Source of the DNA: Mobula hypostoma | Taxonomy: Eukaryota | Length of the DNA stretch: 64,000 nucleotides | Reading direction: 5' to 3' | Assembly: GCF_963921235.1 (NCBI RefSeq) | Contig: NC_086107.1 | Span: 113,648,001 to 113,712,000, forward strand | In this document: one piece after another, positions 3,030 through 63,290 of the stretch | Numbering within the stretch: position 1 is the first letter of the stretch | Layout: the number at the start of each line of letters is the position of its first letter | Translations under genes and position numbers: made by a program | Notes under the pieces: model-generated | Seen by the model: only the letters and a program-made list of their open reading frames with translations | Database searches by the model: none | Told to the model about the DNA's origin: nothing

Positions 3030-3405
3030 CCCTCTCCCCCCCGTTCCTCTATTCCCCACTCTGTCCTCTTACCTCCTCTCACCTGCCTATCACCTTCCCC
3101 GGTGCCCCTCCTCCTTCCCTGTACCCCATGGTCCACTCTCCTCTCCTATCAGATTCCTTCCTCCCCTGACCTTGACCTTTCCACCCGCCTTGACCTATCA
3201 CCTTCCAGCTGGCCTCCTTCTCCACCCCCCCACCTTTTTATTCTGGCATCTTCCCCCTCCTTTTCCAGTCCCGAAGAAGGATCTCAGCCTGAAACATTGG
3301 CTACGTACTCATTTCCATAGATGCTACCGGACTTGCTGACATCCTCCTGCATTTTGTGTATGCTGCTCCGGATTTACAGTGTCTGCAGACTTCCTGATGT
3401 TTATC
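3030..3405 (+). mobile_element. Penelope-like pLTR fragment with degenerate hammerhead
   Basis: Pyrimidine-rich tract, then CAGTCCCGAAGAAGGATCTCAGCCTGAAACATTGGC and ...ATAGATGCT...GCATTTTGTG, homologous to pLTRs attached to GIY-YIG-coding sequence elsewhere in the window. Confidence 0.65.
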
Positions 3406-8696: not shown

Positions 8697-9258
8697 GAGT
8701 CATAGTCATAGTCATACTTTATTGATCCCGGGGGAAACTGGTTTTTGTTACAGTTGCACCATAAATAATTAAATAGTAATAATAAAACCATAAATAGTGA
8801 AATAGTAATATGTAAATTATGCCAGTTGGAAGTAAGTCCAGGACCAGCCTATTGGCTCAGGGTGTCTGACCCTCCAAGGGAGGAGTTGTAAAGTTTGATG
8901 GCCACAGGCAGGAATGACTTCCTATGACGCTCTGTGTTGCATCTCGGTGGAATGAGTCTCTGGCTGAATGTACTCCTGTGCCCACCCAGTCCATTATGTA
9001 GTGAATGGGAGACATTGTCCAAGATGGCATGCAACTTAGACAGCATCCTCTTTTCAGACACCACCGTCAGAGAGTCCAGTTCCATCCCCACATCACTGGC
9101 CTTACGAATGAGTTTGTTGATTCTGTTGGTGTCTGCTACCCTCAGCCTGCTGCCCCAGCACACAACAGCAAACATGATAGCACTGGCCACCACAGACTCG
9201 TAGAACATCCTCAGCATCGTCTGGCAGATGTTAAAGGACCTCAGTCTCCTCAGGAAAT
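8697..9258 (-). mobile_element. Rex1/Babar-like LINE 3' end nested in the Hero-type element
   Basis: ORF 8849-9268(-) YFLRRLRSFNICQTMLRMFYESVVASAIMF... with an (ATGACT)n tail at ~8697-8716. Confidence 0.8.
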
Positions 9259-11227
9259 ACTCCATCACACTCCAGGTCAGACAAGAGATAACCCAGGTCA
9301 GGTTTCAGACCACAGTACCCAGGTAGATCCTTCGCATGATGGCGGTGGTGAGGAGGTAGAGAAGAAGAGGAAGGTCAAGTGGACAGCAATGGCAGATGAG
9401 AAGGCTTGGCGTGTGTTTGATGAGGATATCAGTATGATGTTGGAGAACACTCTCAGGGGAACGTCAAAGAGAAAGTTGGAAGTGATGGGTGATATGATTT
9501 ACGATGTTGGAAAGTACAGGTTTGGTTTGGTTGAGCTGAAGAAAGCAAAGCCTACACAGTAACCAAGCAGGCGCCAGAAGGAGATTAGTAGGTTGAGGAG
9601 AGATCGTTGAGACAGAGGTGGAAGGTAGCAGCTGAGGGTGACAAGCCAGGGCTTACTGATCTCTGAGAGCATTTTCGAATAAAGTTAACATCACTCCGTC
9701 GTGCAGAGTCACAACGTAAAAAGAGAAAGAAGAGAGAGAAGGCAAGAAAGTCGTTCTTTGAGAACCCTCATGGGTTCACAAAGAAACTGTTTGAACAAAG
9801 TAAGAGCGGGCAGCTTAACATCTCTCAACAAGAACTTGAGGATCACCTGGCAAGCACTTACTCTAACGAACAACGGGAGGCTCCTTTGCTTGACATTTCA
9901 GGGCTTGTGAAGCCTACCAAGCCAGGAGTGAAGTTCAATCTGTCAGAACCCAAACCGGCAGAAGTCGAACGGTTCATCAGAAAGGCAAGGTCAGGCTCAG
10001 TGCCAGGACCTAATGGAGTGCCGTATAACGCGTTCAGGAAGTGTGAACAGCTGAGGAAATACTTGTGGAGATTGTTGAAGGTGGTGTGGAGACAAGGTGT
10101 TGTTCCTTTGTCATGGAGTGAGGCTGAAGGAGTATACATCCCGAAGGAAGAGAATTCTTCTACATTGAATCAGTTCCGACCAATTTTACTCCTGAATGTA
10201 GAGGGGAAGATTATGTTTGGCATTCTGGCAGAAAGAATATCTTCATTTGTGATTGAGAATGGATTAGTAAATACATCTGTGCAGAAGGCAGGAGTACCAG
10301 GCTTCCCAGGATGCCTTGAACATTCTAGTATGATATGGCATACCATCCAGGAGTCAAAAAGGTTGAGAAGAAATCTGGCTGTAGTTTGGCTTGATCTGGC
10401 AAATGCGTGTGGTTCTGTTCCCCATGTCCTGATTGAGTTTGCGATGGAATTCCTATGGATTCCTGCTAAGGTGAGGAACTTTGTTACAACGATTTCCAGA
10501 TGACATTTTCCACTCAGCAGTTTACAACTAGGTGCAAGAGATTGGATGTTGGAATCCCAATGGGATGTGCAATTTCACCCATCCTTTTTGTGTTAGCCAT
10601 AGAGGTCATTGTGAGGGCTGCAGAATCAGTGGGACTAGGTGAGGAGTTACCACCAATACGAGCGTTCATGGATGACCTTACCCTTTTGGGTCCCAGCATG
10701 GAGGTAGTGGAAAATGTACTATCTAGACTCAAGAAGCTGATGGATTGGGGAAGAATGAAGTTCAAGATCAAGAAGTCAAGGAGCCTTGTTCTTAGGAGAG
10801 GAAAGCTGGTTGACTTTCACTTCACCCTTTGTGGAGAGGAGATTCCATCCATTCAGGACCAACCAGTTAAGAGCCTTGGGCGATGGTACACAGAGGAGCT
10901 GAGAGACACCAAGAGGGTTCAAGAGACAGGAGAACAGATCAGCAGAGGTCTGATGTCTGTTGACAAGTGTGGCTTGCCTGGCAAGTTGAAGTTGTGGTGC
11001 TTGCAGTATGGACTGATGCCACGGATAATGTGGCCACTAACTGTCTATGAAGTGACAATGTCCCATGTTGAGGCAATGGAATGGAAGATCAACAAGTATG
11101 TGAAGAAGTGGCTTGGAGTACCGAGCAGCCTCACCAATGTTGCAATCCACAGTAGCCAGACAAAGCTTACCATCCCAGTGCAATCCCTTGTTGAAGAGGT
11201 CAAGGTAGCCAAAGTAAGATCATTCTT

Positions 11228-11386
11228 TTCAGGCCGAGACCCTTCGACAGAGTCCTGACGAAGGGTCTCGGCCTGAAACGTCGACTGTACCTCTTCCTAG
11301 AGATGCAGCCTGACCTGCTGCGTTCACCAGCAACTTTGATGTGTGTTGCTTGAATTTCCAGCATCTTCAGAATTCCTGTTGTTTGT
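11228..11386 (+). mobile_element. Penelope-like pLTR mini-insertion (short inverted piece plus forward pLTR end)
   Basis: Perfect 14-bp TSD GTAAGATCATTCTT (11214-11227 / 11387-11400). Removing the insert and one TSD copy restores the host frame KVRSFLMLRDSKD. Confidence 0.85.
11251..11286 (+). ncRNA. Minimal type I hammerhead ribozyme (intact fold)
   Basis: AGUC-CUGACGA-AGG(GUCUCGG)CCU-GAAAC-GUC-GACU: stem I AGUC/GACU, CUGANGA and GAAA core boxes, 3-bp stem II, palindromic ACGU in place of stem III, predicted cleavage after GUC (C11282). Confidence 0.8.
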
Positions 11387-13049
11387 GTAAGATCATTCTT
11401 GATGCTTCGAGACTCAAAAGACCCTGTCATCAAGAACACCCAGCTGGATGTGAGATCAGGCAGGAAGTGGTCAGCCCGTGTAGCAGTTGATGAATCAGAG
11501 TCTAGATTGAAGCACAAGGAGATGGTTGGGGCTACCCAGCTAGGCCGCCAGGGACTTGGATGGACAACCCACTCGTGGTGGTCATCTTCTACAGGTAAGG
11601 AGCGCCGTGAGCTTGTGACACAAGAAGTACGAGAGGTAGAAGAGGAGAAGAGGTTAGCTAAAACAGCTGGCCTGGCCAAACAAGGGGCTTGGACCTGGTG
11701 GGAAAGTGTTGAACAACAACATCTATCTTGGAATGTTCTGTGGCAGATGGAACTGCTCCACATTTCTTTTCTATGCAGAGCAGCACACGATCTGCTCCCA
11801 ACACCTGCCAACCTCAGCACCTGGTATGAAGATAAGACGGACAGATGTGCTGCTTGTGGCGAGGAGGGAACACTTCAACATAACTTGAGTGCATGCAGAG
11901 TCAATCTTTCTAGCGGCATGTACATTTGGAGATATAACAATGTTCTCAAAGTTGTAACGGAAGCGGCTGAGCAGAGAGTACTGCAGCACAACTTATCTCA
12001 TGCCCCATGCTGCACAGAACATCGTATATCATTTGTGAAAGAAGGCTCCAAGTCAAGGGTGTACAGAACAGGCTCACGATCAAGCATACTTTCTTCAGCA
12101 AATGATTGGTGTGTCAAGGCCGACCTGGACGGGAAAAGCAGTTTCCTGGAGCAAATAGTTTTCACCACATTGCGTCCAGATATAATCGTATGGTCTGACA
12201 CCAGTAGAGAAGTGGTTATTGGTGAACTCACAGTCCCCTGGGAAGACAACATCGATGAAACCCATGAGCGCAAGTTAACCAAGTATGCAGAGTTGAGATC
12301 AGAGTGCAGAGACAGAGGGTGGAAGGTCTCATGCTATCCATTCGAAGTAGGCTGCCGTGGGTTTATTGCGTCACTCTCCAGAAGTGGCTGCGTGACCTTG
12401 GCTTCACTAGAAGAGAGATCAAGTCAACCAGCAGGGCTGTAGCTGAGGCAGCAGAGACAGGATCAGCATGGGTGTGGACCAAGTATGTCCAGAGGGGCAG
12501 ATAGTCAGACAGTGTATACATGTCATGCAAACCCTTCAGTAGTTGCATAGACACCTGAAGAACAGACTATCTGTTGGAGGGAAGTGACCAACAACTCTGA
12601 TAGAGGCAGATGCCAAGTTTTTAAGCTCACCAGTGGGAGGTGGTGCTTTAGCACTGCTGGCCCACCACCTTGAGGGAGTCTTGATCATAAGCGGCCGACT
12701 CTCCTGAAGACAGGTGACAGATCAACTGATGATCTCACTGGTGATAGCACAGGACAGTCAACATCTTAGTCCACATGTATTTTTTAACTCTAATAAACAC
12801 TGTGAATTGTAGTAATAAATAAATAAATAAATAAATTATATATATATATATAAATGTATATGCATACGTAAAATTAAAAAAGTAGTGAGGTAGTGTTCAT
12901 GGGTTCAATGTCCATTCAGACGAGGATGAAGCTGTTCCTGAATCGTTGAGTGTCACTGAGTGTGTTCTAACAGTTAGCTAAAGTTTTTAGGAGAATTTAG
13001 AGTTCTGAACATTCACACCCTTAGACCCCTCAAAGTTTCCTCGCGATAT

Positions 13050-13500: not shown

Positions 13501-14899
13501 CTGATGCTTGTTGTGTATTTAATATTTCAGTTAGATTTGAGCAATATTGTAAATGTATTGCTTGATCAAGAGTACTTTGTTGTTTGCATAATGCGTTGTG
13601 AATTATATGTAGAAGTACATGAATGGCATACGTCATCATGTCACCACATCTTATGTTTGCACCTCACTTAAAAGTAGAGAATGAAACGAGAGTACACATT
13701 TATCCCAGTCTTCCCATGTTTTTCTCTCAATTAATTTCTGGAGTTACAAAATATAATAGTGGTGACAAGGTATTTTTAAAATGAACCTGAGATGAATACC
13801 TACCTGTTGAAGTGCAGTGAGACGTTTGAGTTTAAAAAATCAGTGCAGCACATGTCTCTTCATAAGGGAGAGAGAGAGAGAGAGAGAGAGGACAATTGAG
13901 CTAAAAGAAAGGCAGAAAATGGGTGAAATTCATAGGTTTATTATCAGTGATAATAATAATAAAGAAAAAAAAGAAGCAGAAATGGCTGGCTATATCAGAA
14001 AAATAGATGCACTCAATTGCACAAGACAACTGGATATTGTGTACTGAGCCAATTGAACAGTATTGTAAAGCAAATGGAATAACCAATGAGAATTAAGTGC
14101 CAGTTTTGTTGAGTGCTATAAGTAGAAGAGCATATAGTTTGCTTAGAAGCTTAATTGCTCCAATCAAACCAGCGAAATAAGTTTTGCTGATATTGTGAAA
14201 GTAATGCAGGAACATTTATAACAGAAACATTTATTGATTGCAGAATGCTTCGGGTTTGATAAGTGGAATCAAAAGGAAGGAGAGTCCTTTTGTCCTTTTA
14301 AATGTTATGTCGCTGAATTGAAGAGATTTTCTGAGCACTGTCAGTTCAGTGATGGGCTTTATTACGCACTGAAAGATCACTTAGTTTGTGGAATCTTACA
14401 AGAAAACATTCAAAAATAGCTCCTAAACTGAAGCACAATCACATTTAAAAGAGCAGTTGAAATTGCTGTATCAATGGAAACAGCAGATTGACACAATTGA
14501 GTTGCAGTCAGGAATGAAAGTGAGCATGAACAGAATTGCAATTTCTAAGACTGGGTACACATAAGCTGAATCAAGGCGGTAGGGCATTGGCCCAAGAACA
14601 TGTCGAACCAGCAGGGCACAGGTCTGAGGGCAGGGAATCATCTGAGGTTTGGATGCCTGGCCTTGTGTCTGTAGACTCACTTTCACAAACTTCAGTTCTG
14701 AATGCTATTTGTTGTATAAAGTATAATAACTTTGATAATAAGTATACTTTGAACTTTGAACTTTAAACAGAAACCAGCCTGGCTGAACAAATTGTGCTAC
14801 CATTGTGGTAGGGATTTACATACACCAGACCAATGCAGGTTTAAAGGTGAAATTTGTAGAAAATGCAACAAAGTAGGACACTTACAAAGAGCATGTTGG

Positions 14900-15129
14900 G
14901 CAACACACATCAAACTTGCTGGTGAACGCAGCAGGATAGGCAGTATCTCTAGGAAGAGGTACAGTCGACGTTTCCAGCCGAGACCTTTCGTCTCTTCTCT
15001 CTCGAAGGGTCTCGGCCCGAAACATCGACTGTACCTCTTCCTAGAGATGCTGCCTGGCCTGCTGCGTTCACCAGCAACTTCGATGTGTGTTGCTTGAATT
15101 TCCAGCATCTGCAGAATTCCTCATGTTTA
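14900..15129. mobile_element. Penelope-like pLTR pair in inverted (palindromic) arrangement
   Basis: 14900-14990 is the reverse complement of ~15003-15093. TSD CATGTTGGGCAA / CATGTCGGGCAA (14892-14903 / 15130-15141). Confidence 0.8.
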
Positions 15130-15144
15130 CATGTCGGGCAAACC

Positions 15145-25511: not shown

Positions 25512-25732
25512 TGTCTTGACGCTGTTGTTGTGTGATACATTTTGTGGTTTTCTTAACAAATAGATTCAAGGAAACCTAGTATCTATCAACAGTGGTTTGC
25601 TATTTCTTTAAGGACTAACAATAACTTGGTCACGCATAGGCTGCCTTTCACAAAATCATTTTGATATGTCTAATTATCTGTAATTTTAATGCTTTGGCCT
25701 AGTTTCTAACACTTTCCCTTTGGCAAATATTA

Positions 25733-25815
25733 TGAGGCAATGCTTCACCTGTGAATCTGTTGGGGTTGTCCACTGTATCTGGTGCTCCCAATGTGATCTC
25801 CTCTACATTGGGGAA
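25733..25815 (+). pseudogene. Penelope-like GIY-YIG endonuclease fragment
   Basis: Translates RQCFTCESVGVVHCIWCSQCDLLYIG, homologous to 31672-31748. Confidence 0.6.
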
Positions 25816-25934
25816 AGGCCACGTAGACTTCACTTTATGTTTCGATGTACATGTGATAAATAAGAAGTAATTTTTTAAATCCAGAAGTCACCAATAGCAA
25901 AATCAGAGCCCTTAACTACAGAGGCTTAGTAAAT

Positions 25935-26240
25935 AACATGCACAATATGATGGAGGAATTCAGCAGGTCAGGCATCATCCATGAAAATGAATGAACAGTG
26001 GATGTTTCAGGCTGAGACCCTTCATCAGGACTGGAAAGGAAGGGAAAAGATGCCAGAATAAGAATAAGAAGATTGGCAGAGAGGAAGGAGGACAAATTAG
26101 AATGTGATAGTGAAACCAGGTGGGTGGGAAAGGTAAAGGGCTGGAGAAGAAGGAATCTGACATGAGGGGAGAGAGGACCATGGGAGAAAGAGAAGGAAGA
26201 GGGGCACCTGGAGGAGGTGAGAGGCAAGTGAGGAGAAGAG
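25935..26240 (-). mobile_element. Penelope-like pLTR with hammerhead (25997-26032)
   Basis: Minus strand AGTCCTGATGAAGGGTCTCAGCCTGAAACATCCACT: core boxes intact, with one stem I mismatch. Confidence 0.7.
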
Positions 26241-26242
26241 GT

Positions 26243-26653
26243 GAGAATTTGTGGTTGGACTTGAAAAGGGCTGTTCACTCACAATCCCCATGCAATCTGA
26301 CAGAGCTTGAGCAGGTTTGTAAAAAAGAATGGGGGAAAATTGCAGTGTCCAGATATGCAAAGCTGATACAGACTTATCCACACAGACTTGAGGCTGTAAT
26401 TGCTACCAAAGTTGCACCTACTAAATACTGACTTGAAGGAGGTGACTAATTATAAAATCCATTATTTTGTGTTTACTAATTGTAATACATTTAGAAGAAT
26501 TTATAGAAATTTGTTTTCAGTTTGACAGGAAAGAGTATTTTCTGTTGATCAGTGTCAAAAAAAAAGCCAAATTAACTCCACTGTGATTCAGTGTTGTAAG
26601 ACAATAAAACATGAAAACTTCTAAGGGGGCATGAATACTTTTTATAGGCACTG
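26243..26653 (+). mobile_element. Tc1 transposon right end (transposase C-terminus and TIR)
   Basis: Encodes ENLWLDLKRAV..PCNLTELEQVCKKEWGKI..KLIQTYPHRLEAVIATKVAPTKY*. Ends ...GAATACTTTTTATAGGCACTG. Confidence 0.8.
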
Positions 26654-28835: not shown

Positions 28836-29463
28836 AAATATACCCAATGACTTGGCCACCACTGCCACTGAATTCCAGATTTGCCAACCTCTGGTTAAAA
28901 TAAATTCCCCTTAACTCTGTTCTAAAGGGATGTTCCTCCATTCTGAGGCTGTACCCTCTGGCCCTAGACTTCCTCACTATAGTAAATGTCTTCTCTAGGT
29001 CCACTCTATCTAGGCCTTTCCATATTCGATAGGTTTCAATAAGGTTCCCCCCCCCCACCTTCTAAGCTCCAGCAAGTACAGCCCCAGAGCCATCAAACAC
29101 TCCTCATATGTTAATCCTTCCATTCCTAGAATAATTCTTGTGAATCTTTATTCCCTTTCCAACTGGAAGATACAAAAGCTTGAGAAAAAAGCCACCATGA
29201 CAGCTGTTAGAAGACTTTTGAATGGACCTCTTATAACACAGAACATTACAGTACAAACTCTTCAGCCCAGAATGTTGTACTGACCTTTTAACCTATTCCA
29301 AGATCCATCTAACCCTTCTCTCCTACATAGCCCTCCATTTTTCTATCATCATGTACTATTCTCAGAGCTTCTTAAATCTCCCAATTGTACCTGCCTCTAC
29401 TTCCACCTATGGCATCCCCTTCCGACATCCCCCTTATACTTTCCTCCAATCTCCTTAAAATTA

Positions 29464-29905
29464 TAAACACAAGAGATTCTGCAGATGCTGGAAACCCAAA
29501 GCAATGCACAGAAAATTCTGGAGCAACTCAGCAGGTCATGCATAGATAGTCAACATTTTGTGTGAGGCCCTTCTTCAGGACTGAGAAGGAAAGGGAAAGA
29601 TGCCAGAATAAAAAGGATGTGGGGGGAGAGAAAAGGTGCTAGCTATGATAGGTGAAGCCAGGTGGGTGGGAAAGGTCAAGAGCTGGAGAGGTGGAGGAAG
29701 GGGAGGAGAGTGAGCCATAGCAGAAAGGGAAGGAGGAAGGCACCCAGGGGAAGGTGACAGGGGAGGTGAGAAGTAAAAGGTCAGAGTGAGGAATAGAGAA
29801 ATTTGTTTACCAAAAGGAGAAACCAATATTCATACTATCAGCTTGGAAGGCATTGCTCCTCCACCCTGAAGGTGGCCTCATCTTGGCACGAGGAGGCCGT
29901 GGGCT
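29464..29905 (-). mobile_element. Penelope-like element 3' end (endonuclease C-terminus remnant plus pLTR, degenerate hammerhead 29548-29583)
   Basis: Minus strand encodes HGLLVP.DEATFRVEEQ.. then the pLTR. Homologous to 60540-61470. Confidence 0.65.
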
Positions 29906-30502
29906 GACTCTTCTCAACTGCCTAATACTTCCCCCAGGTCGCAACATGTTGAAGTTTTGAAAGAATGTGAAAGAACAAGATCATCCAGGCCACGCTCTCC
30001 ATTAGGAAGGAGGTATAGGAGCCTTAGGGCTCATACCAGCAGGTCCAGGGAAGTTATTACCCTGTAACCATCCGGGTCCTGAACCGGTGTGGATAACTTC
30101 ACTCACCTCAACACTGAACTGATTCCACTACTGACAGACTCACTTTCAAGGACTCTACAACTCATGTTCTCAGCATTATTTATTAAACATTATAATTTGT
30201 TTGTATTTGTACTGTTTGCCTTTTTCACATTGGTTGCATTACATTTTATTTTTGCGTGTTTTTTTTATTCTATTGTATTTCTTTGCTCTACTGTGAAAGC
30301 TCGCAAGAAATTGAATCCAGGGCAGGGCGAGACATTTCAGCCTCTTGGACATGGTCTGCCAATCAATATGATTAGAGTCATAGAATCATAGAACAGTACA
30401 GCATAGAAACAGGCCTTTGGCCCATCTAGTCCATGCCAACCCATTTCCTGCCCAGTCCACTGCAGTAGGCCATAGCCCTCCAAGCCCCTCTCATCCATGC
30501 AC

Positions 30503-31200
30503 CATAAGACATAGGAGCAGAATTAGATTATTTGGCCCATTGGGCCTGTTCTATTTCATCATGTCTGATCCTATTTTCCTCTCAGCCCCAATCTCCTGCC
30601 TTCTCCCCGTATCCCTTCATGCCCTGACCAATCAGGAATCTATCAACCTTACACATACATGAAGACTCGGCCTCCACAGCTGCTTGTGGCAAAGAATTCC
30701 ACAGATTCACCACTCTCTGGCTGAAGAAATTCCTTCTCATCTCCGGTCTAAAATGACGCCCATCTAATCTGAATCTGTGTCTTCTGGTCTTAGACTTTCC
30801 CACCATAGGAAACATCCTCTCCACATCCACTCTATCAAGATCTTTCACCATTCGATAAGTTTCAATGAGGTCACCCCTCATTCTTCTGAATTCTATTGAA
30901 CACTTAGAGCCATCAGATGCTTTTCATATGACAAGCCATTCAATCTGGAATTATTCTCATGAGCCTCCTTTGAACCCTCTCCAGTTTCAGCACATCCTTT
31001 CTAAGATAAGGAGCCTAAAACTGTTCACAATACTCCAGGAGAGGCCTCACCAGTGCTTTATAAACTTTCAACATTACATCCTTGCCTTTATGTTCTAGTC
31101 CTCTTGAAATGAATGCTAACTATGCATTTGCCTGCCTCACCATAGATTCAACCTGCAAATTAATCTTCAGGGAATCCTGCAGAAGGACTCCCAAGTCCCT
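30503..31200 (-). mobile_element. CR1 LINE 3' fragment
   Basis: ORF 30582-30881(-) MRGDLIETYRMVKDLDRVDVERMFP...RNFFSQRVVNLWNSLP. Confidence 0.8.
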
Positions 31201-31202
31201 TA

Positions 31203-31270
31203 CACTTCCTCCCTGACCACCATTCAAGGCCCCAGACAGTCCTTCCAGGTGAGGCGACACTTCACCTGTA
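31203..31270 (+). pseudogene. Penelope-like endonuclease-linker fragment
   Basis: Translates TSSLTTIQGPRQSFQVRRHFTC, which overlaps the RHFTC start of the GIY-YIG fragment at 31672. Confidence 0.55.
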
Positions 31271-31299
31271 AATCGATAGGAACATTGCGAATTGCTTTA

Positions 31300-32760
31300 G
31301 CTGCAAGAGAAAGTTGAGGCATTGGTGAGCTTTCTTGACTGTGACAGAAGTGTGGTTGGACTGGGGGACAGGCTACTGGCGAAGTTCACATATACCCACC
31401 TGAATCTCTGAGCCCTCTCAACAGCAGCATTGAGGTAGACAGAAGCATGTGTACTTCTCCCACTTCTGAAGTCAACGACCAGCTCTTGTGTTTTATTGAC
31501 CTCCAGGGAAAGGTTGTTGTCATGACAACATGTGACCAGGCTCTCCATCTCCTCCAACACACATAAAAAATACTGGTGAACGCAGCAGGCCAGGTAGCAC
31601 CTATAGGAAGAGGTACAGCTGACGTTTCGGGCCGAGACCTTTCGTCAGGACTAACTGAAAGAAGAGATAAAGCGACACTTCACCTGTGAGTTGGCTGGGG
31701 TGATATACTGCGTCCGGTTCTCCCAATGTGGCCTTCTATATATTGGAGGAACAACACCTTATATTCCACCTGGGTAGCCTCTAACCTGATGGCATGAACA
31801 TTGACTCCTCTAACTTCCATTAATGCCCCTCCTCCCCCTTGTACCCCATCCGTTATTTATTTATTTATTTATTATTGTTGTTAGGTTTTTTTTCTCTCTC
31901 TCTCCTTTTTCTCCCTCTGTCACTCTCACTATACCCCTTGCCCATCCTCTGGGCTTCCCCCCTCCCCCTTTTCCTTCTCCCTGGGCCTCCCATCCCATGA
32001 TCCTCTCATATCCCTTTTGCCAATCACCTGTCCAGCTCTTGGCTCCATCCCTCCCCCTCCCGTCTTCTCCTATCATTTCGGATCTCCCCCTCCCCCTTCC
32101 ACTTTCAAATCTCTTACTAGCTCTTCCTTCAGTTAGTCCTGACGAAGGGTCTCGGCCCAAAACGTCAAGTGTACCTCTTCCTAGAGATGTTCCCTGGCCT
32201 GCTGCGTTCACCAGCATTTTTTGTGTGTGTTGCTTGAAATTCCAGCATCTGCAGATTTCCTCCTGTTTGTGCTCTCTATCTCCTTCCTGTACTGACTCAC
32301 TGTAATTTGAGATACCACCCACTACAGTGATATCATTTACAAACTCGTAGATGGAGTTGGAGCGGGATCTGGACGCACAACCTTGAGTGTACAGGGAGTA
32401 GAGGAGGGAGCTGAGGACTCAATCCTTGTGGAGGACCAGTGTTTAGAATAATTGTGGCGGACGTGTTTCTGTCTGTTTTTAGCGATTGCGGACTGTTGGT
32501 CAGGAAGTCCAGGGTCCAGTTGCAGAGGGAGACGTTAACTCCCGGGGTCTGGAGTTTGCTGATGAGTTTGTTTGGAATAACAGTATTGAAGGTGGAGCTG
32601 TAGTCAATAAGCAAGTCTGATGTAGATGTCTTGACTGCCCAGACCCTCCAGAGATGAGTGCAGGGCCAGGGAAAATGTGTCCACAGCAGACCGGTATCGG
32701 TGGTAGGCAAATTGCATTGGGCTGAGGTCGTCTGGAAAGTTGGAGATCATGCGTGCATTC
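31300..32760 (-). mobile_element. Decayed Rex1/Babar-like LINE RT region, split by the Penelope-like insertion at 31554-32270
   Basis: ORFs 32333-32710(-) LIDYSSTFNTVIPNKLISKL..LCNWTLDFLTN..TGPPQG and 31297-31560(-) CHDNNLSLEVNKTQELVVDFR. Confidence 0.7.
31554..32270 (+). mobile_element. Penelope-like element: inverted partial pLTR, internally deleted GIY-YIG endonuclease, forward pLTR
   Basis: TSD GCTCTCCATCTCCT / GCTCTCTATCTCCT (31540-31553 / 32271-32284). 31672-31820 encodes RHFTCELAGVIYCVRFSQCGLLYIG / EQHLIFHLGSL*PDGMNIDSSNF. Hammerheads at 31617-31652(-) and 32135-32170(+), both mutated. Confidence 0.85.
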
Positions 32761-32976: not shown

Positions 32977-33092
32977 CAACACACATCAAAGTTGCTGGTG
33001 AATGCAGCAGGCCAGGCAGCATCTATAGGAAGAGGCGCAGTCGACGTTTCAGGCCGAGACCCTTCGTCAGGACTAACTGAAGGAAGAAGGAA
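32977..33092 (-). mobile_element. Penelope-like pLTR mini-insertion
   Basis: TSD TTAGAGAG (32969-32976 / 33093-33100). Confidence 0.75.
33039..33074 (-). ncRNA. Minimal type I hammerhead ribozyme (intact fold)
   Basis: Minus strand AGTCCTGACGAAGGGTCTCGGCCTGAAACGTCGACT, identical to 11251-11286. Confidence 0.8.
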
Positions 33093-35134: not shown

Positions 35135-36225
35135 ATAGGCATGCAGTGGAGCGCATCCTGACTGATTGCATCACGGCCTGGTATGGAAATGCAAAGGAAC
35201 AGAAGACTCTGCAGGAAGGGGTGGATACAATCCAGCCCATCACGGGTAAAGCTCTCCTCACCACTGAGAACATCCACACGGCGCATTGTCATAGGAAAGC
35301 AGCATCCATCGGCAAGGACCCCTCTATCCCGTCCATGCTCTTTTCTCACTGCTGCCATTGGGAAGCAGGTCCGGGAGCCTCAGGGCTCAGACAACCAGGC
35401 TCAGGAGTAATTATTACCCCGAACCATCAGACTCCTGAATTAGCATGGATAACTTCACTCACCCCAACTCTGAACTGATTCCACAACCTAAGTAAAGTAA
35501 AGGCATCCGTTCGTCTTGTGAGACCATGGATCTGCACCTGGAAAGTCTTCACTCTCCAGGGCGCAGGCCTGGGCAAGGTTGTATGGAAGACCAGCAGTTG
35601 CCCATGCTGCAAGTCTCCCCTCTCCATGCCACTGATGTTGTCCAAGGGAAGCATTAGGGCCCATACAGCTTGGCACCGGTGTCGTCACAGAGCACTGTGT
35701 GATTAAGTGCCTTGCTCAAGGACACAACATGTTGCCTTGGCTGGGGCTCGAACTCACGACCTTCAGGTTGGTAGTCCAATGCCTTAACCACTTGGCCACG
35801 TGCCCACACAACCTATAAACTCACTTTCAAGGACTCTACAACTCGTCTTTGCGATATTATTTATTTATTGTTTTGTATTTGCACTATTTGACTTTTTTAC
35901 CTGTTGGTAGTTTGCCAGACACAAACGAGAGCAAGTCTGTTGGTGCTGGATTTCCAGAGTAACACAGACAAAACACTAGAGGAACTCAGCAGGTCAGGCA
36001 GCATCGCTGGAAATGAATAAAATGTCAACGTTTTGGACCGAGACTGTTCTTCAGGACTGAGAAGGAAGGGGGAAGATGCCAGAATAGCTCGTTTGTTTGT
36101 GTGTAGTTTTTCATTGATTCTATTGTGTTTCATTGTTTGGCTGTGAATGCCTGCAAGAAAATGCATCTTGGGGTAGTACATGGTGCCATATATGTATATA
36201 CTTTGATAATAACTTTGAACTTTGA
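35135..36225 (+). mobile_element. Rex1-like LINE 3' end and 3'UTR, hosting a SINE and a Penelope-like pLTR fragment (~35930-36087)
   Basis: ORF 35146-35478 ERILTDCITAWYGNA..HCHRKAASI. Tail TTTGAACTTTGA at ~36215. Confidence 0.65.
35491..35806 (-). mobile_element. tRNA-derived SINE, full length
   Basis: Minus strand A box TGGCCAAGTGG, B box GAGTTCGAGCC, then TGTGTCCTTGAGCAAGGCACTT. (TTTAC)n tail and TSD CACAACCTA (35482-35490 / 35807-35815). Confidence 0.8.
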
Positions 36226-48675: not shown

Positions 48676-49673
48676 CATTGGTTGTGGGAATGTTTCAATG
48701 ATGGGGTGCTGAGGTCATTGGTTGTGGGAACGTTTCAATGATGGGGTGCTGAGGTCATTGGCTGTGGGAATGTTTCAATGACGGGGTGCTGAGGTCATTG
48801 GCTGTGGGAATGTTTCAACGACGGGGTGCTGAGGTCATTGGCTGTGGGAACGTTTCAATGATGGGGTGCTGAGGTCATTGGCTGTGGGAATGTTTCAATG
48901 ACGGGGTGCTGAGGTCATTGGCTGTGGGAATGTTTCAACGACGGGGTGCTGAGGTCATTGGCTGTGGGAATGTTTCAACGACGGGGTGCTGAGGTCATTG
49001 GCTGTGGGAATGTTTCAACGACGGGGTGCTGAGGTCATTGGCTGTGGGAATGTTTCAACGACGGGGTGCTGAGGTCATTGGCTGTGGGAACGTTTCAATG
49101 ATGGGGTGCTGAGGTCATTGGCTGTGGGAACGTTTCAATGATGGGGTGCTGAGGTCATTGGCTGTGGGAATGTTTCAACGATGGGGTGCTGAGGTCATTG
49201 GCTGTGGGAACGTTTCAATGATGGGGTGCTGAGGTCATTGGCTGTGGGAATGTTTCAACGATGGGGTGCTGAGGTCATTGGCTGTGGGAACGTTTCAATG
49301 ATGGGGTGCTGAGGTCATTGGCTGTGGGAACGTTTCAATGATGGGGTGCTGAGGTCATTGGCTGTGGGAATGTTTCAACGATGGGGTGCTGAGGTCATTG
49401 GCTGTGGGAACGTTTCAATGATGGGGTGCTGAGGTCATTGGCTGTGGGAACGTTTCAATGATGGGGTGCTGAGGTCATTGGCTGTGGGAATGTTTCAATG
49501 ACGGGGTGCTGAGGTCATTGGCTGTGGGAATGTTTCAATGATGGGGTGCTGAGGTCATTGGCTGTGGGAACGTTTCAATGACGGGGTGCTGAGGTCATTG
49601 GCTGTGGGAATGTTTCAACGACGGGGTGCTGAGGTCATTGGCTGTGGGAACGTTTCAATGATGGGGTGCTGAG
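48676..49673. repeat. Minisatellite, 40-bp unit x ~25
   Basis: Unit CATTGGCTGTGGGAA(T/C)GTTTCAA(T/C)GA(T/C)GGGGTGCTGAGGT in head-to-tail tandem with no spacers. Confidence 0.97.
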
Positions 49674-50528: not shown

Positions 50529-50762
50529 TTTGTAGATTATTTCAGAGACAAAAGGCATTCTGCTGATACTGGAAATCTGGAACAGCATGCACAAGACGCT
50601 GAGGGAACTCAGCCGGTCGAGCAGGGAAATGGAAAGTCAACATCTCGGGCTGTCCTCAGGACTGGGAAGGAAATGGGCAGAAACCAGATTAGAAGGTTGG
50701 GGATTGAGAGGGAGGGGGGAAGATCACAGGTTGACAAGGTGGAAAGAGGGAATAATGTGATA

Positions 50763-51444: not shown

Positions 51445-51480
51445 GGTCCTGACGAAGGGTCTCGGCCTGAAACGTCGACT
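51445..51480 (+). ncRNA. Minimal type I hammerhead ribozyme (intact fold) heading a Penelope-like pLTR fragment (51445-51580)
   Basis: GGTCCTGACGAAGGGTCTCGGCCTGAAACGTCGACT: stem I GGUC/GACU, predicted cleavage after C51476. Confidence 0.78.
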
Positions 51481-52753
51481 CTACCTCTGCCTAGAGATGC
51501 TGCCTGGCCTTCTGCATTCACCAGCAACTTTGATATGTGTTGCTTGAATTTCCAGCATCTGCTGATTTCCTTGTGTTTGCCTTTGTTTTTGTTGCTGCTT
51601 GGTGCAATTTTGATCGGAGCGGGACCGGCTCTGCGGTAACACAATCCTGGACCGAACTGAGCTGAGCTGGAACTGAACATTCCTGGACCGTTGAGCTGGC
51701 ACTGGCGAAGGTCCGGAGGGGGGTTCATGAGAATGATTCCCGTACTTAAAGGGTTGTTTGCTGACTCCGGGCCTGTATTGCCGGAGTTCAGCAGAATGAG
51801 GAGGAGACCTCCCTGAAACCTACCAAATGTTAAACGCCTTATTAAAGAATATAAAGTGGTCATGCAGAGGATGTCTCAGATCAGAGCACAGCCTCATTTA
51901 GAAGGACATCACTTTCGAACAGAAATGATGGGGCATTTCTTCAGCGAGAGGATAGTGGAATTCATTGCTACAGACGGCTGAGGAGGCCAAGTCTTTGGAA
52001 ATATTTAAAACAGGCTGAGAGGGAAAATAAGTCAACCATGATGGAATGGTGGAGCACTCTCAGTGGGCCAAATAGTTTAAGTCTTCTCCTTCATCTTATG
52101 ATTCTGTGGTCGCTTTTATACCTGGAAGTCACTGTGACTGATGGGCCCGCTGACAAGTCTCCAGGAGGATGAGGTTCTGAGTTTCCTGGGGAGGAAACAG
52201 CATTGTACAGGGAGCGGTCTGATAACCTCGACCAGTACAGACAGTTCCTGGCGTGTCAGCCTTTTTACAGTAAAAAAAAATACTCAGCAGACCAACTGAA
52301 CAGAACAGAAGCCAGTGAATGTTTCCTGAGTGACTCATTGCTGAACTGTCACAGCTGTTGTCAAGAACAATCTGCCTGTAATGTAAGCAGAGTGTCAACA
52401 TAGCTCGGCCCCAATGTTGAGCTCTGCTCTGCAGCTGAGCTTTAGAACGGGGGGCTGGCATCTCAGTGAAACCTGCTGAATATTGAAAGACCTAAACGGA
52501 GTGGACCTAGAGAGCATGTTACCTTTAGTGGGGGAGTCTAGGACCAGCCTCAGAAGAGAAGCACATTCCTTTAAAACAGAGATGAGGAGGAATTTCTTTA
52601 GCCAGACGGTGGTGAATCTGTGGAATTCAGGAATCAGAATCAGCTTTAATACCACCGGCATATGTCGTAGAATTTGTTAACTTTGCGGCAGCAGTACAAT
52701 GCAATATATTTAATAAGGAAGAAAAAATGTGAATTACTGTAAGTATATAGTTA

Positions 52754-54179: not shown

Positions 54180-54805
54180 CATAGTCATAGTCATACTTTA
54201 TTGATCTCGGGGGAAATTGGTTTTCATTACAGTTGCACCATAAATAATAAATGGTAATAAAACCATAAATAGTTAAATAGTAATATGTAAATTATGCCAG
54301 TAAATTATGAAATAAGTCCAGGACCAGCCTATTGGCTCAGGGTGTCTGACCCTCCAAGGGAGGAGTTGTAAAGTTTGATGGCCACAGGCAGGAATGACTT
54401 CCTATGACGCTCTGTGCTGCATCTCGGTGGAATGAGTCTCTGGCTGAATGTACTCCTGTGCCCACCCTGTACATTATGTAGTGGATGGGAGACATTGTCC
54501 AAGATGGCATGCAACTTGGACAGCATCCTCTTTTCAGACACCACCGTCAGAGAGTCCAGTTCCATCCCCACAACATCACTGGCCTTACGAATGAGTTTGT
54601 TGATTCTGTTGGTGTCTGCTACCCTCAGCCTGCTGCCCCAGCACACAACAGCAAACATGATCGCACTGGCCACCACAGACTCATAGAACATCCTCAGCAT
54701 CGTCCGGCAGATGTTAAAGGACCTCAGTCTCCTCAGGAAGAAGGCTCTGACCCTTCTTGTAGACAGCCTCAGTGTTCTTTGACCAGTCCAGTTTATTGTC
54801 AATTT
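54180..54805 (-). mobile_element. Rex1/Babar-like LINE 3' end
   Basis: ORF 54329-54838(-) FFLRRLRSFNICRTMLRMFYESVVASAIMF... with an (ATGACT)n tail. Confidence 0.8.
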
Positions 54806-57511: not shown

Positions 57512-59162
57512 GTTTCACTGTACATCTCACAAGTCCTGGTTATGCGACCACTGACGCCAGGCAGACAATCTCTGAAAGAGAATTGATAATAGCTGGGGTC
57601 GCCTGTCTTGTAAAGACGCTGCCCAGAAGAAGACAATGGCAAACCACTCTGAGCCCTATCAGAGGGTCTTGACCCGAAACGTCGACTGTACTCTTTTCCA
57701 TAGGTGCTGCCCGGCCTGCTGAGTTCCTCCAGCATTTTTTGTGTGTGTTGCTTGGATTTCCAGCATCTGCAGATTTTCTCTGTAGAAACATTTGCCAAGA
57801 ACAATCACGTTCATGGAAGGACCATGATTGTCCACGTCATATGACACAGCGCATAATGATGATGTCATACGACAAGCCACATACTGATGATGATGCTTAC
57901 TGTAATTTATAGTTTTTGTTATCGGGTATTTCAGTGTACTGCTGCTACATAACAACAAATTTCAGGGCATGTGCCGGTGATATTAAACCTGATTCTGATT
58001 GTTAGCGAGATGCCATGTTGAGACTAACAGCAAGCTGTGTGGCCCAATTGCATCCTATGTGACCAATTAACGCACTAACCTGTGCTTGTTTGTAATGTGT
58101 GAGGAAACTGGAGCACCCGGAGGAACGTCACGCCCTCTCCGGGTAAACGTACAAACCCCTTACAGTCAGTGGCGGAATTGAAACCGGGTCGCCGGGGCAG
58201 TAATGGCTGTACGTGAGCCGCGAAGCTACTGGGCGGTGGTTGTGGTCCATTGTGGGCCACATCACAGGAACCAGCCTCCCCACCGTGGATTCTGCCCGTA
58301 CTTCTCGTTGTCTCAGTAAAGAGGACAGTACAGTCAAAGACGCCCTCCCCCCCCCCATCACACCAGACATTCTCTCCTCTTACCCTCTCACACTCCACCT
58401 GGCTCAAAGATAGCTTCTGCCCTGCTGTAGAAAATGCTCCCGAGTATGGCAAATTAGTCTCTTGATCTCATAATCTACCTCGTTGTGATCTTGCACTTCA
58501 CTGTTCCCCTGTACTGCACTTTCCCTGTAGCGTTACACTCTATTCTGCATTGATACTGTTTTACCCTGTTCTCTCTCAGTGTGCTGTGTGATGATCTGAC
58601 CCGTGCGAACAGTTTGCAAGACCAGCTTTTCACCGGATCAGAATCAGGTTTACGTTGTGAAATTTGTTGTTATGAGGCACCAGTACATTACAAAACATAT
58701 TAATAAAAACTGTCAGTAACAGTGAGATGCATATACGTATAAACATTAAAAAGTTAAATTAAATAATTAGCGCAAAAAAAGTAGTGAGGTAGTGTCCAAA
58801 GAGTTAATGTCCGTTTGGGAACCTGATGGCGGAGGGGAAGAAGCTGTTCCTGAATCGCTGAGTGTGGGCCTTCCTCCTCTTCCTCCTCTGACGGTAGCAA
58901 TGAGAAGAGGGCGTGTCCTGGATGACAGGGTCCTTAGCGATGGACGCTGCCTTTCTGAGGCATCGCTCCTCGAAGATGTCCTGGATGCTGCGGAGGCTGG
59001 TGCCCATGGTGGAGCTGACAGAGTTTATAAATTTCTGCAGCTTATTTCGATCCTGTGTGGTGCCCCTCACACCAACAGCGATGCAGCCAGTTAGAATGCT
59101 CTCCACAGTACTTGTATCTCCAGACATGTGAGAATAATAAACCAATTCCAATAACAAAGCTG

Positions 59163-59395
59163 GGCCTCCTGTCCCATGATCCTCTCATATCCCCTTTACC
59201 AATCACCTGTCCAGCTCTTGGCTCCATCCCTCCCCCTCCTGTCTTCTCCCCCTCCCCCTCCCACTTTCAAATCTCTTACTAGCTCTTCCTTCAGTTAGTC
59301 CTGACGAAGGGTCTCGGCCCGAAACGTCGACTGTACCTCTTCCCAGAGATGCTGCCTGGCCTGTTGCATTCACCAGCAACTTTGATGTGTGTTGC
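59163..59395 (+). mobile_element. Penelope-like pLTR insertion
   Basis: TSD TCCAATAACAA(A/T)GCTG (59147-59162 / 59396-59411). Confidence 0.8.
59297..59332 (+). ncRNA. Minimal type I hammerhead ribozyme (intact fold)
   Basis: AGTCCTGACGAAGGGTCTCGGCCCGAAACGTCGACT: stem II GGG/CCC, predicted cleavage after C59328. Confidence 0.8.
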
Positions 59396-60105: not shown

Positions 60106-60539
60106 GGAGATAGGGAGTCCAGTGCAAGGCAAAAACAAGCTGAAAAATACTATTAATTGCTCATCTGACCCTGATGTCAGCTTCTGGTAACCCTTCTCCC
60201 CTCACTTGCTAAGGCCTTACCTATACTCAAAGATCACCCACGGCCCTGTGAAGAGGAGAATTCCAATGACACAAATCATCTCACCTCTGTCTAAAGTGGG
60301 CAATCCCTGATATTGGAACAGCACCACTGGTTCACGGTTCTCCCAGCACAGGAAACGTCCTCTTCACATCCGCCTTGCCGAGGCCCTGAGGCCCTCACAC
60401 ATTTCAGTCGTTCCGTCTCTATCTGAATGATCACCTCTATTCGGAATATGCATATTACAGGAATTTTCTGTGGGTGCGTAGGCACAACTTGCAACAAAAA
60501 ACAACAAATATTCCCCCCACCTCCACACTATTCATCACA

Positions 60540-61470
60540 AGCAGGACTTCCTGTTGGCCAAGCATTTTAATTTCAGTTCCCATTCCCGTTCCAACGTATC
60601 GATCCATGGCCTCCTTTTGTGCCACGATGAGGCCACCCTCAGGGTGACCATAAGACAAAGAAGCAGAAGTCGGCCATTCGGCCCATCGAGTCTGCTCTGC
60701 CATTTTATCATGAGCTGATCCATTCTCCCATTTAGTCCCACTCCCCGGACTTCTCACCATAACCTTTGATGCCCTGGCTACTCAGATACCCATCAATCTC
60801 TGCCTTAAATACACCCAATGACTTGGCCTCCACTGCTGCCCGTGGCAACAAATTCCATAGATTCACCACCCTCTGACTAAAAAAATTTCTTCGCGTTTCT
60901 GTTCTGAATGGGCGCCCTTCAATCCTTAAATCATGCCCTCTTGTACTAGACTCCCCCATCATGGGAAACAACTTTGCCACATCCACTCTGTCCATGCCTT
61001 TTAACATTAAACAGGGTGGAGGAGCGACACCTTATATTCTGTTTGGGTAGCCTCCAGCCTGATGGCATGAACATCGATTTCTCCTTCTGGTGAACGAATT
61101 TCACTCCCCCTTCCTCTGTTCCTCACTCTGACGTTTCTCTTCTTCTTACCCGCCTATCACCTCCCCCTGGCTCCCCTCCTCCTTCCCTTTCTCCTATGGT
61201 CCCCTCTCCTCTCCTTTTAGATCCTATCTTCTTCAGTCCGTGACCTTTCCCACCCACCTGGCCACACCTATCACCTTTTAGCTAGCCTCCTTCCCCTCCT
61301 CCCACCTTTGTATTTTGACATCTTCCCCCTTCCTTCTCAGTCCCGGTAAAGAGCCTCGGCCTGAAATGTCGACCGTTCACTCTTTTCCATAGATGCTGCC
61401 TGGCCTGCTGAGTTCCTCCAGCATTTTCTGTGTGTTGCTTTGGATTTCCAACATCTGCACATTTTCTCAA
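60540..61470 (+). mobile_element. Penelope-like element 3' end (GIY-YIG C-terminus plus pLTR), split by a CR1
   Basis: Encodes DFLLAKHFNFSSHSRSNVSIHGLLLCHDEATLRV | EERHLIFCLGSLQPDGMNIDFS, then a pLTR with a degenerate hammerhead at 61338-61374. Confidence 0.8.
60647..61011 (-). mobile_element. CR1 LINE 3' end
   Basis: ORF 60732-61007(-). TSD CAGGGTG (60640-60646 / 61012-61018). Confidence 0.85.
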
Positions 61471-61858
61471 ATTAACATTCAACAATTATAAAGAAGGAAG
61501 AAATATATAAAAATAAAAGTTAAAAGTACAGATATGGAATAAAATGTGCATAAATACATAAAAAAACCAGCAGGTATTTACAGTGTAAACAGCTTTATGA
61601 ACGGTGGTCTGAAGTATTTACAGTGCAGTGACTGAGGTGACCGATAGAGGGCGGTGTGGAGGGCTAACCAGATTGGTTGACAACATTACCTGTGTGGGTG
61701 AAGACACTTTTAAGATGGTATGAAGTTTTTGCTTTAACACCCCTCTAGCCTGCTCCAGGCTACGAGCTGCATGACATTTTGCTCAACTGTGTGATGAACT
61801 GAGGCTGAAGCTGTGGACCCAGTCTGGCTGCTCCGGGCTTCGGTCAACAGACGCGAAC

Positions 61859-62680
61859 GAAGTTAATTTCCTAATGACATAGAAGAGACCATTCTGCCCA
61901 TTGAACCTATGCTACCCCCACTACTTTCTACTGTAATTCATTCACCCCATGTCAGCTGACTTTGCATCGCCTGTGTTCTGAACGTTGGCGCTTGCTGTTT
62001 GTTCGCGCAGTTTGTGTTTTTATTTTCCCTCTCTGCACATTGGCTGTTTGTTGGTCTTTTTTGCGTGGGTTTTTGTTCTGTGGCTGCCCTGTAAGGAGAC
62101 GCATCTCAAGGTTGTATAATTTATACATACTCTGATAATAAATTGAAGTCTGAACTAGTGCTTTCCAGAAGGGAATTTCTGAAAAATCCACTTTGCTGGG
62201 AGGATAATGTCTGCAGTGAGTTGTCCTGCCTGTCTCACTGCTGCTAGATTGAACAGTGGGTATGACGTGGGATTTGGAGAAAGTAACCACTTTCTGGTTG
62301 CAAACTCACCCGTCAGCCCTCACCTTCACTCGCTCCCAAAATCTGCAGATCTGGCAACAAAGACCAGCTCCAGAACCAAGGACTGTACATGCCCCAGCCT
62401 GTGAAGAGGAGCCCATTTAACAGCTTAATCTAACCAACTGGTTCGACCAGTTCTAAATCACACAAAACGCTGGAGGAACGCGAGGCCGCATCTATGAAGG
62501 GAAATAAAGAGTCAATGTTTCGGGCCAAGAGCCTTTGCCAGGGCTGGTTTTTAATCAGTTGCACACGGGCAATGCAAAGTCAGCTGACATGGAGTGAATG
62601 AATTACAGTAGAAAGTAGTGGGGGTAGCATAGGTTCAATGGGCAGAATGGTCTCTTCTATGTCATTAGGAAATTAACTTC
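61859..62680. repeat. Inverted repeat, ~119-bp arms (61859-61977 / 62563-62680), ~585-bp spacer
   Basis: GAAGTTAATTTCCTAATGACATAG...CAGCTGACTTTGCAT is the reverse complement of ATGCAAAGTCAGCTG...CATTAGGAAATTAACTTC, with one mismatch in the core 109 bp. Confidence 0.92.
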
Positions 62681-62924
62681 TATTTCAAAAATATTCCTAT
62701 CTTATAAAATTATGCACAGGAAATGCAATCGGTACACATCTTCCACTGCGAAGAGTGCAGAAAAGATTGCTTTGGATTTCCGGCATCTGCAGAATCTCTT
62801 GTTTTTATGGTTTGCAACTCCTCTGCAAAGTCTCTTCGAGGGATAGCTACCCTGAAGAAGTTTAAATCTTCTCTTCAATTGGAGTTCAGTGAGACCCTCC
62901 CCGTCTGTGATCTCTGCTGCCCTC

Positions 62925-63145
62925 TGACTCTTCGACCTTGAGACCTGGCTTCACCTATCACCTTCCAGCTTGCCTCTTTCCTCTCTTCCCACCTTTCTTT
63001 TATTCTGGCATCTTTCCCCCTTCCTTCTCAGGCTTGATGAAGGATCTCGGCCCAAAGCGTTGACTGTGGACTCTTTTCCATAGATGCTGCCTGACCTGCT
63101 GAGTTCCTCCAGCATTTTGTGTGTGTTGCTCTGGATTTCCAGCGT
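62925..63145 (+). mobile_element. Penelope-like pLTR with degenerate hammerhead
   Basis: CAGGCTTGATGAAGGATCTCGGCCCAAAGCGTTGACTG followed by CATAGATGCTGCCTGACCTGCTGAGTTCCTCCAGC. Confidence 0.65.
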
Positions 63146-63290
63146 CTCACGTATAGAACTTTATTCCTTGGAGTGCATGGAGGGGCATAGATAGGGTTAA
63201 TGCACCTAGATTTTTCTCTCCAGGGTTGAGGAATCAAGAATCAGAGGGCACAGGTTGAAGGTGAGAGGGGAAAGGTTTAATAGGAACCTG

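Follow-up and report, generated by a model that had tools for sequence, protein, structure and literature searches.

Minimal hammerhead ribozymes of metazoan Penelope-like elements (PLEs) were described in 2014 by Cervera and De la Peña, who report thousands of them per vertebrate genome and place them in Neptune elements of fishes and of a coral (PMC4209133). In the same report, single Schistosoma motifs showed no cleavage and dimers were cleaved weakly, and a review says likewise for PLE hammerheads (PMC6765202). In the anole element PAc, the hammerhead was cleaved only with the element's protein, catalytic mutations left insertion in vitro unaffected, reverse transcription began at two internal sites bounding a tail, and the cut site was neither the start nor the end of any RNA-seq read (PMC11167929). 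Insertions of PLEs have been described as having an inverted 5' pLTR, 5' truncation, a tail on one end and a target-site duplication (TSD), and a linker of the Cx4CxxC type marks Neptune and Nematis; the function of PLE hammerheads was called unclear in the same 2021 paper (10.1101/2021.04.23.441226). The PLE groups reported from vertebrates are Neptune and Poseidon.

Here we analyse a window of 64,000 nucleotides (the whole stretch of DNA shown in part above) from Mobula hypostoma, in which an earlier note had flagged a dispersed hammerhead-like motif. Our results suggest, with a probability of about 0.85, that the motif is the pLTR minimal hammerhead of a GIY-YIG PLE, likely of Neptune type, which would cut only as a dimer in the tandem RNA of its own element, and that the solo copies are likely inert.

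Copies of the motif in the window

The 36-base motif is a minimal type I hammerhead, in which stem I (4-5 bp) is followed by the CUGANGA box, an unpaired A, a stem II of 4 bp, the GAAA box, CG, UC and the second strand of stem I. The exact 36-mer occurs at 11251-11286(+), 33039-33074(-) and 59297-59332(+). The copy at 51445-51480(+), previously counted as a fourth intact one, has G instead of A at base 1, which gives a G.U pair, and is otherwise identical. Seven matches with at most three mismatches were found, against 0.00 expected from 100 shuffles. A Hamming scan, BLAST and a profile search of the 64 kb gave 17 pLTR copies with at least part of the motif, about one per 3.8 kb, and one inverted 23-nt core piece (Table 1). 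Four faint older pLTR fragments without the hammerhead core were also found. All 12 mutated or partial copies listed in the earlier note were located, within ~10 nt of their proposed positions, and its total of ~16 copies has to be raised slightly, the additions being 50635-50663(-) and 11228-11250(-). The very high copy number supposed for the family is backed by the 47,122 contig pieces of one public sequencing run that match a 631-nt stretch. Exact-pattern scans of metagenome and viral contigs gave no matches, and no related loci were found among the viral contigs.

A loose CUGANGA..GAAA pattern matched nine times against 6.4 expected, which is the chance level. The search with Rfam covariance models that had been proposed as a check gave no hammerhead match in the window at E<=1. 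The case for the ribozyme thus rests on the anatomy of the insertions and on their relatives.

Table 1. Features of the flagged insertion and of the other pLTR copies in the window
Feature	Positions	Strand	Details
Left target-site duplication, flagged unit	11214-11227	+	14 nt, exact
Flagged unit as a whole	11228-11386
Inverted 5' piece	11228-11250	-	motif positions 5-27, one mismatch
Minimal type I hammerhead, flagged copy	11251-11286	+	stem I 4 bp, stem II 4 bp, G10.1.U11.1, cut predicted after C11282
pLTR body 3' of the hammerhead	11287-11350	+	to the shorter of two 3' ends
Optional ~35-nt tail	11351-11386	+	longer 3' end
Right target-site duplication, flagged unit	11387-11400	+
Subfamily B copy, older	3039-3402	+	motif 3267-3302 degenerate
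Head-to-head insertion	14900-15130		inverted tailless pLTR from motif position 7, 10-nt filler, sense tailed pLTR from position 9; CUGA box missing in both pLTRs; TSD ~12 nt, 1 mismatch
Subfamily B copy	25935-26246	-	motif 25997-26032: boxes intact, palindrome lost
Subfamily B copy, decayed endonuclease end (by eye)	29463-29910	-	motif 29548-29582 degenerate
Inverted tailless pLTR	31555-31669	-	hammerhead 31617-31652: boxes intact, G10.1 changed, innermost stem I pair broken
GIY-YIG endonuclease C-terminus remnant, internally deleted	31664-31823	+	73% and 77% identity to P0003, E 3e-17
3' pLTR with tail	32135-32270	+	hammerhead mutated: G12 to A, stem I broken
Unit of the three preceding features as a whole	31555-32270		bounded by 14-nt TSD, 1 mismatch
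Solo tailless pLTR	32977-33092	-	motif 33039-33074 intact, G10.1.U11.1; begins 18 nt before motif; 8-nt TSD
Subfamily B copy	35920-36086	-	motif 36023-36058 degenerate
Subfamily B copy, absent from the earlier note	50545-50701	-	motif 50635-50663, stem II deleted
Solo pLTR with tail	51445-51580	+	motif 51445-51480 passes descriptor, G10.1.U11.1; homology from motif position 2; no TSD found
Copy, B-like in its downstream part	57663-57783	+	from motif position 12, no CUGA box; U-A replaces U.G in stem II
Tailless pLTR with part of 3' UTR	59163-59395	+	motif 59297-59332, sole window copy with full core plus G10.1-C11.1; 16-nt TSD, 1 mismatch
Subfamily B copy	60500-61475	+	motif 61339-61374 degenerate; endonuclease remnants 60500-60646 and 61013-61090, separated by another repeat
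Subfamily B copy	62453-62545	-	motif 62510-62545 degenerate
Subfamily B copy	62921-63147	+	motif 63030-63065 degenerate

Fold of the motif

The minimum-free-energy fold has a 4-bp stem II (GGGU/GCCY, loop CUCG) after an unpaired A, in a register that is kept in the relatives. For these reasons we rejected the 3-bp stem II (AGG/CCU or GGG/CCC) that had been proposed. The U at position 11.1, for which an A-U pair was the alternative, most likely arose from C by CpG decay. The type I topology with CUGANGA and GAAA boxes was borne out, since four of the 17 window copies pass the full hammerhead descriptor and none did so in 50 shuffles; the predicted cut after C11282 was also placed correctly.

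Bases A15.1-C-G-U16.1 form the palindrome ACGU without a loop, so that stem III is possible only between two motifs. Cleavage of dimers has reportedly been observed by Lunse et al. In agreement with the earlier proposal of a palindrome in place of a stable stem III, ACGU is present in 10 of the 17 window copies and in 27 of 28 matches in relatives, for which the descriptor demanded a palindrome. Its duplex is predicted to be worth only -1.7 kcal/mol. The isolated monomer is predicted to prefer pairing between the CUGA box and the palindrome (P 0.78-0.99), and the 36-mer is no more stable than its shuffled versions (z -0.4 to -1.0). When placed in a context of 206 nt, stem I has a predicted probability of at most 0.013 in all five copies folded. 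All these predictions leave out tertiary contacts and protein.

Anatomy of the insertions

The copies have two alternative 3' ends, ~100 and ~135 nt from the motif start, which differ by an optional tail of ~35 nt, and many public contigs continue into unrelated flanks at the position equivalent to the tail. Two units have an inverted tailless 5' partner and a tail at the other end, and a third has a short inverted piece. TSDs of 8-16 nt bound five of the 14 units tested, each scoring above all 60 random pairs, and none was found in another five of the 14; candidates of 6-7 nt in four older copies were within chance and were dropped. The 5' ends of the copies form a nested series that extends into the endonuclease ORF.

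The flagged unit interrupts the reading frame of a non-LTR reverse transcriptase (RT). Its inverted piece and sense copy are predicted to form a long hairpin (-43.8 kcal/mol, z -7.5) that sequesters the core. The host of this insertion is a broken non-LTR retroelement at 9005-12442(+), with Pfam matches to RVT_1 in 10470-11258 and, weakly, to zf-RVT in 11354-12442; its two frames are offset as expected from a 173-nt insertion including the TSD. A transcript of the head-to-head pair at 14900-15130 is predicted to form a hairpin of ~100 bp (-165.7 kcal/mol), which could possibly be a dsRNA substrate. Directly before this pair, at 14780-14900(+), lies a zinc-knuckle-like stretch (CxxCx4Hx4C), presumably the gag remnant of an LTR retroelement.

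A non-LTR retrozyme, or a self-standing SINE-like unit, amplifying via circular RNA without full-length PLE RNA might also produce short units whose ends are fairly similar. Such retrozymes have been reported in the one chondrichthyan sampled, and two contig joints in one public run amount to a head-to-tail repeat of the ~37-nt motif. These joints (run X20, compared with 32135-32166) lead from the end of the motif back to its start, come from another organism, and may represent a natural mini-dimer or an assembly artefact. We nevertheless hold this origin to be highly improbable, because none of the 18 tandem-repeat rows of the window overlaps a motif, the nested 5' ends run into the endonuclease ORF, and inverted partners and tails are hallmarks of PLEs. 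The window contains no direct pLTR tandem.

Two further features near the ends were considered. A stem-loop at the two 3' ends appears in single-copy folds, but the consensus of nine copies has no covarying helix, and the idea was rejected. In every window copy that has upstream sequence, the beginning of stem I overlaps a pyrimidine tract with a terminal AG, and a similar tract and AG are reported at the end of the intron of D. virilis Penelope (PMC4209133). A role as splice acceptor was discarded, as none of the 15 joints shown of 70 was of the GT..AG type and the AG is missing in relatives.

The carrier element

The attribution of the motif to Penelope-like pLTRs is supported: the longer copies are preceded, in the orientation of the motif, by remnants of a GIY-YIG endonuclease, and the insertions have the inverted partners, tail and TSDs described above. 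A phmmer search with the remnant at 31655 gave six matches, namely two stingray proteins, a GIY-YIG fragment and three low-complexity or unrelated ones; a word-based protein search with a 40-aa remnant gave nothing. Searching the window by tblastn with those proteins identified endonuclease matches of 50-80% identity at 31664-31820, 60500-60646, 61013-61090, 31198-31287 and 25732-25830, and found neither an RT part nor a full-length element. The matches at 25732-25830 and 31198-31287 (both +) are isolated fragments without an adjoining sense pLTR, the former separated by ~100 nt from the 3' terminus of the copy on the minus strand at 25935. As judged by eye, loose ends of public contigs run into the endonuclease segment that is deleted from the window copy.

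The stingray protein has 327 relatives at E<=1e-10, from rays, sharks, gar, corals and echinoderms, with RT and GIY-YIG domains. They show a DKG motif, the YIDD motif of the RT, a Cx4CxxC linker and the GIY-YIG domain. In the closest relatives, P0003 and P0016, a CX2-5CxxC linker lies between the RT and the endonuclease, and a PLE-type RT is part of the same ORF; the window remnants begin downstream of the linker. Because the linker is present, and because Neptune and Poseidon are the vertebrate groups, the element probably belongs to the Neptune clade. In P0025, a relative from the zebra shark, the read-through C-terminus resembles by eye a translation of the motif downstream of the endonuclease, which suggests that the motif may be common to elasmobranchs.

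Pfam searches of 40 of the 102 ORFs of at least 100 aa found LINE-type domains only, with no PLE domain or host gene, a result that does not imply an intergenic location. The window also contains a tandem repeat of 40 bp (48676-49673, 25 copies, 96% matches) that apparently grew from within a dispersed repeat, and a young repeat family at 934-1364, 8828-9259 and 54309-54739 whose members are 96-97% identical. Frames of this family match Pfam ALKBH8_N and are probably the end of a LINE ORF.

Conservation between subfamilies and in distant relatives

That two pLTR subfamilies share the motif was confirmed by comparing the majority letters of a young subfamily A (8 copies) and an old subfamily B (9 copies). 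Only 2 of the 36 motif columns differ, whereas the downstream part has 19 differing columns in 66 (p=0.005) and the upstream part 25 in 39 (p=6e-8). The motif is thus better preserved than these flanks, the reverse of what the earlier note had named as grounds for abandoning the ribozyme. The downstream sequence, which had been taken as the main difference between the subfamilies, diverges less than the upstream sequence. The tail (6 of 36 columns) does not differ significantly from the motif (p=0.26).

We then compared the best 80 of 512 related loci, which have 34-51% protein identity; many of them stop short of the pLTR, and several nearly duplicate one another. The hammerhead descriptor gave 28 matches in 24 of these 80 loci, 24 of them on the strand of the ORF, and none in 20 shuffles. 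Twenty matches lie on the sense strand within ~220 nt after the protein match, and three are inverted 5' pLTRs. One relative (L006) has two motifs in direct orientation, 3,066 nt apart, around a frame of 989 codons, that is, the order pLTR-ORF-pLTR. A hammerhead of a different type, with an ATATAT palindrome and four extra bases, was observed on a metagenome contig (L061:1014, minus strand), antisense to a Neptune-type ORF.

An unpaired base between A9 and 10.1 is found in all 28 matches in relatives and in all four passing window copies. We aligned these four copies with 16 relatives, four of the 20 rows being one family. The pair G10.1-C11.1 is present in 17 of 20 rows, and the three rows with G.U are window copies. 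Stems I and II show two-sided changes in 53 cells, against 19.4 when shuffled and at most 10 when slid, and the core is invariant. The descriptor demands the core and at least three pairs per stem, so these covariation and pairing figures are partly built in; the fixed position of the motif and the empty shuffles are not. That 24 of the 80 distantly related loci share this core, its stems covarying, indicates that active elements kept it.

Active elements may have kept the motif mainly as a folded, protein-bound landmark, where reverse transcription stops, strands are switched or transcripts start, with cleavage being incidental. Seven of nine 5' ends or inversion junctions of subfamily A lie at -18 to +9 of the motif (+1, +2, +5, +7, +9, -17 and -18), the other two at about -134 and -465. 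None is at the cut site (+33), where the profile would have found such a young copy, and all copies that have the core and a downstream part span this site. The lack of effect of catalytic mutations on insertion of the anole element in vitro (PMC11167929) points in the same direction, as do the Naiad PLEs, reported to multiply without hammerheads (10.1101/2021.04.23.441226). Yet, the clustering of 5' ends comes from a small sample without a proper null, and any 5' truncation favours short copies. The four second-pLTR junctions in relatives, 46-489 nt before the CUGA box, do not cluster. Furthermore, the aligned relatives keep every base of the catalytic core and have a permitted base at position 17, which fits selection for the chemistry, although the descriptor preselected these loci. 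On balance, we regard the landmark as an unlikely main reason for the conservation of the motif. A more specific version of the idea, which we put forward tentatively and consider doubtful, is that the hammerhead fold sets where short insertions begin: the RT would read through the uncut ribozyme, stop or flip at its 5' edge, and thereby spawn SINE-like units of 100-150 bp in rays. If true, this would give PLE hammerheads a testable role that does not involve cleavage.

Decay of the copies and cleavage

The window copies are heavily mutated: both boxes and the NUH site are kept in six of the 17. Ten positions out of 36 fall in CpG; there, 40/155 cells are changed (34 as C>T or G>A), compared with 27/377 at the other positions (p=3e-8); part of the variation at N7 reflects lineage rather than decay. 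Both variable sites listed in the earlier note are CpG cytosines. Outside CpG, the core of subfamily A is unchanged in all 66 cells, whereas its flank has 32 changes in 496 (p=0.024), and in subfamily B the difference is not significant (6 of 72 in the core, 83 of 531 in the flank, p=0.11). The deficit in subfamily A could reflect some constraint on the copies, but it is equally well explained by the use of the motif to find the copies and by differences between the source lineages. The solo copies of the window are likely inert leftovers.

The earlier note had drawn a different consequence from the abundance of the motif, namely that the dispersed copies are potential self-cleaving sites and could cut any pre-mRNA crossing the region; the partner for pairing might be a second copy on one transcript or, in trans, the abundant RNA of the element. 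The copy number is indeed very high, four copies pass the descriptor, and pLTR pieces occur in contigs of runs that are guessed, and only guessed, to be RNA. Yet, the remaining 13 copies fail the descriptor, the copies are solo, three of the four that pass have G.U at the conserved 10.1-11.1 pair, and the flagged one lies in its predicted hairpin. The nearest unsequestered passing copies on the same strand (51445 and 59297) are 7.85 kb apart, and there is no intact tandem pair. Pairing between copies would depend on the weak ACGU duplex and compete with the preferred pairing of the CUGA box with the palindrome in the monomer. The published single motifs are inactive and their dimers weak (PMC4209133), and the anole element needs its protein and has no RNA-seq reads beginning or ending at the site (PMC11167929), so that cutting of pre-mRNA lacks support and seems to us very unlikely. 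Were solo copies to cut host RNA, the effect on gene expression in rays would be large, but the evidence points the opposite way.

We thus favour cleavage restricted to the element's own RNA. By analogy with PAc and Schistosoma, it would be dimer-dependent and probably protein-dependent. In a full element with the order pLTR-ORF-pLTR, as in L006, the two motifs would pair via ACGU, complete stem III and cleave after GUC, probably aided by the RT-endonuclease protein. Synthesis of cDNA would begin at either of two points lying 65-100 nt further downstream, which would account for the optional tail, and would pass through an uncut or re-ligated site. By halting or changing strand prematurely, as it often would, it would leave short 5'-truncated and inverted pLTRs, which would subsequently accumulate neutral mutations.

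Comparison with known systems

We found no description of Penelope hammerheads in elasmobranchs or stingrays in the literature searched, whose scope left out most subscription journals, Repbase and Dfam, and the two of three supplements of PMC4209133 that were searched have no shark, skate or ray entry. Since the kind has been known since 2014, the identification of the motif is correct without being surprising. The interest of the family lies in its size: a single PLE hammerhead is represented naturally by a very large number of copies in a cartilaginous fish, so that insertion ends, decay and strand bias in introns can be tallied to ask what PLE ribozymes do.

Canonical Rfam type I hammerheads share with the motif the CUGANGA and GAAA boxes, the NUH site and stems I and II, but have an intramolecular stem III that is absent here, where no Rfam match was obtained. 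The non-LTR retrozymes (bioRxiv 10.64898/2026.07.22.740005) are similar in having a type I hammerhead, derived from PLEs, in chondrichthyans; they are described as tandem repeats with a hammerhead per unit, whereas the window copies are dispersed, solo or inverted. PAc of Anolis carolinensis (PMC11167929) shares the pLTR hammerhead, the two 3' ends bounding a tail of 30-40 nt, and copies that span the uncut site. It belongs to the Poseidon clade, whereas the family described here is probably of Neptune type. The PAc ORF is reported to start inside the hammerhead, and reverse transcription of PAc to begin in a stem-loop rich in AC; in the window copies, the sequence close to the 3' ends is GU-rich on the sense strand, and no consensus stem-loop is supported.

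The closest match is with the minimal hammerheads of metazoan PLEs as reported in PMC4209133. The shared traits include the type I topology, a helix I of 4-5 bp, the unpaired base before stem II, the G10.1-C11.1 pair, a palindrome at 15.2-16.2 without loop 3, the location in pLTRs, and a predominance of solo truncated copies with some opposite-strand pairs 100-700 bp apart. Stem II is shorter here (4 bp) than the 7-8 bp of the Schistosoma families in that report. Overall, the motif is of a known kind, the minimal hammerhead of endonuclease-bearing PLEs; the family that carries it in this cartilaginous fish is highly amplified and probably of Neptune type.
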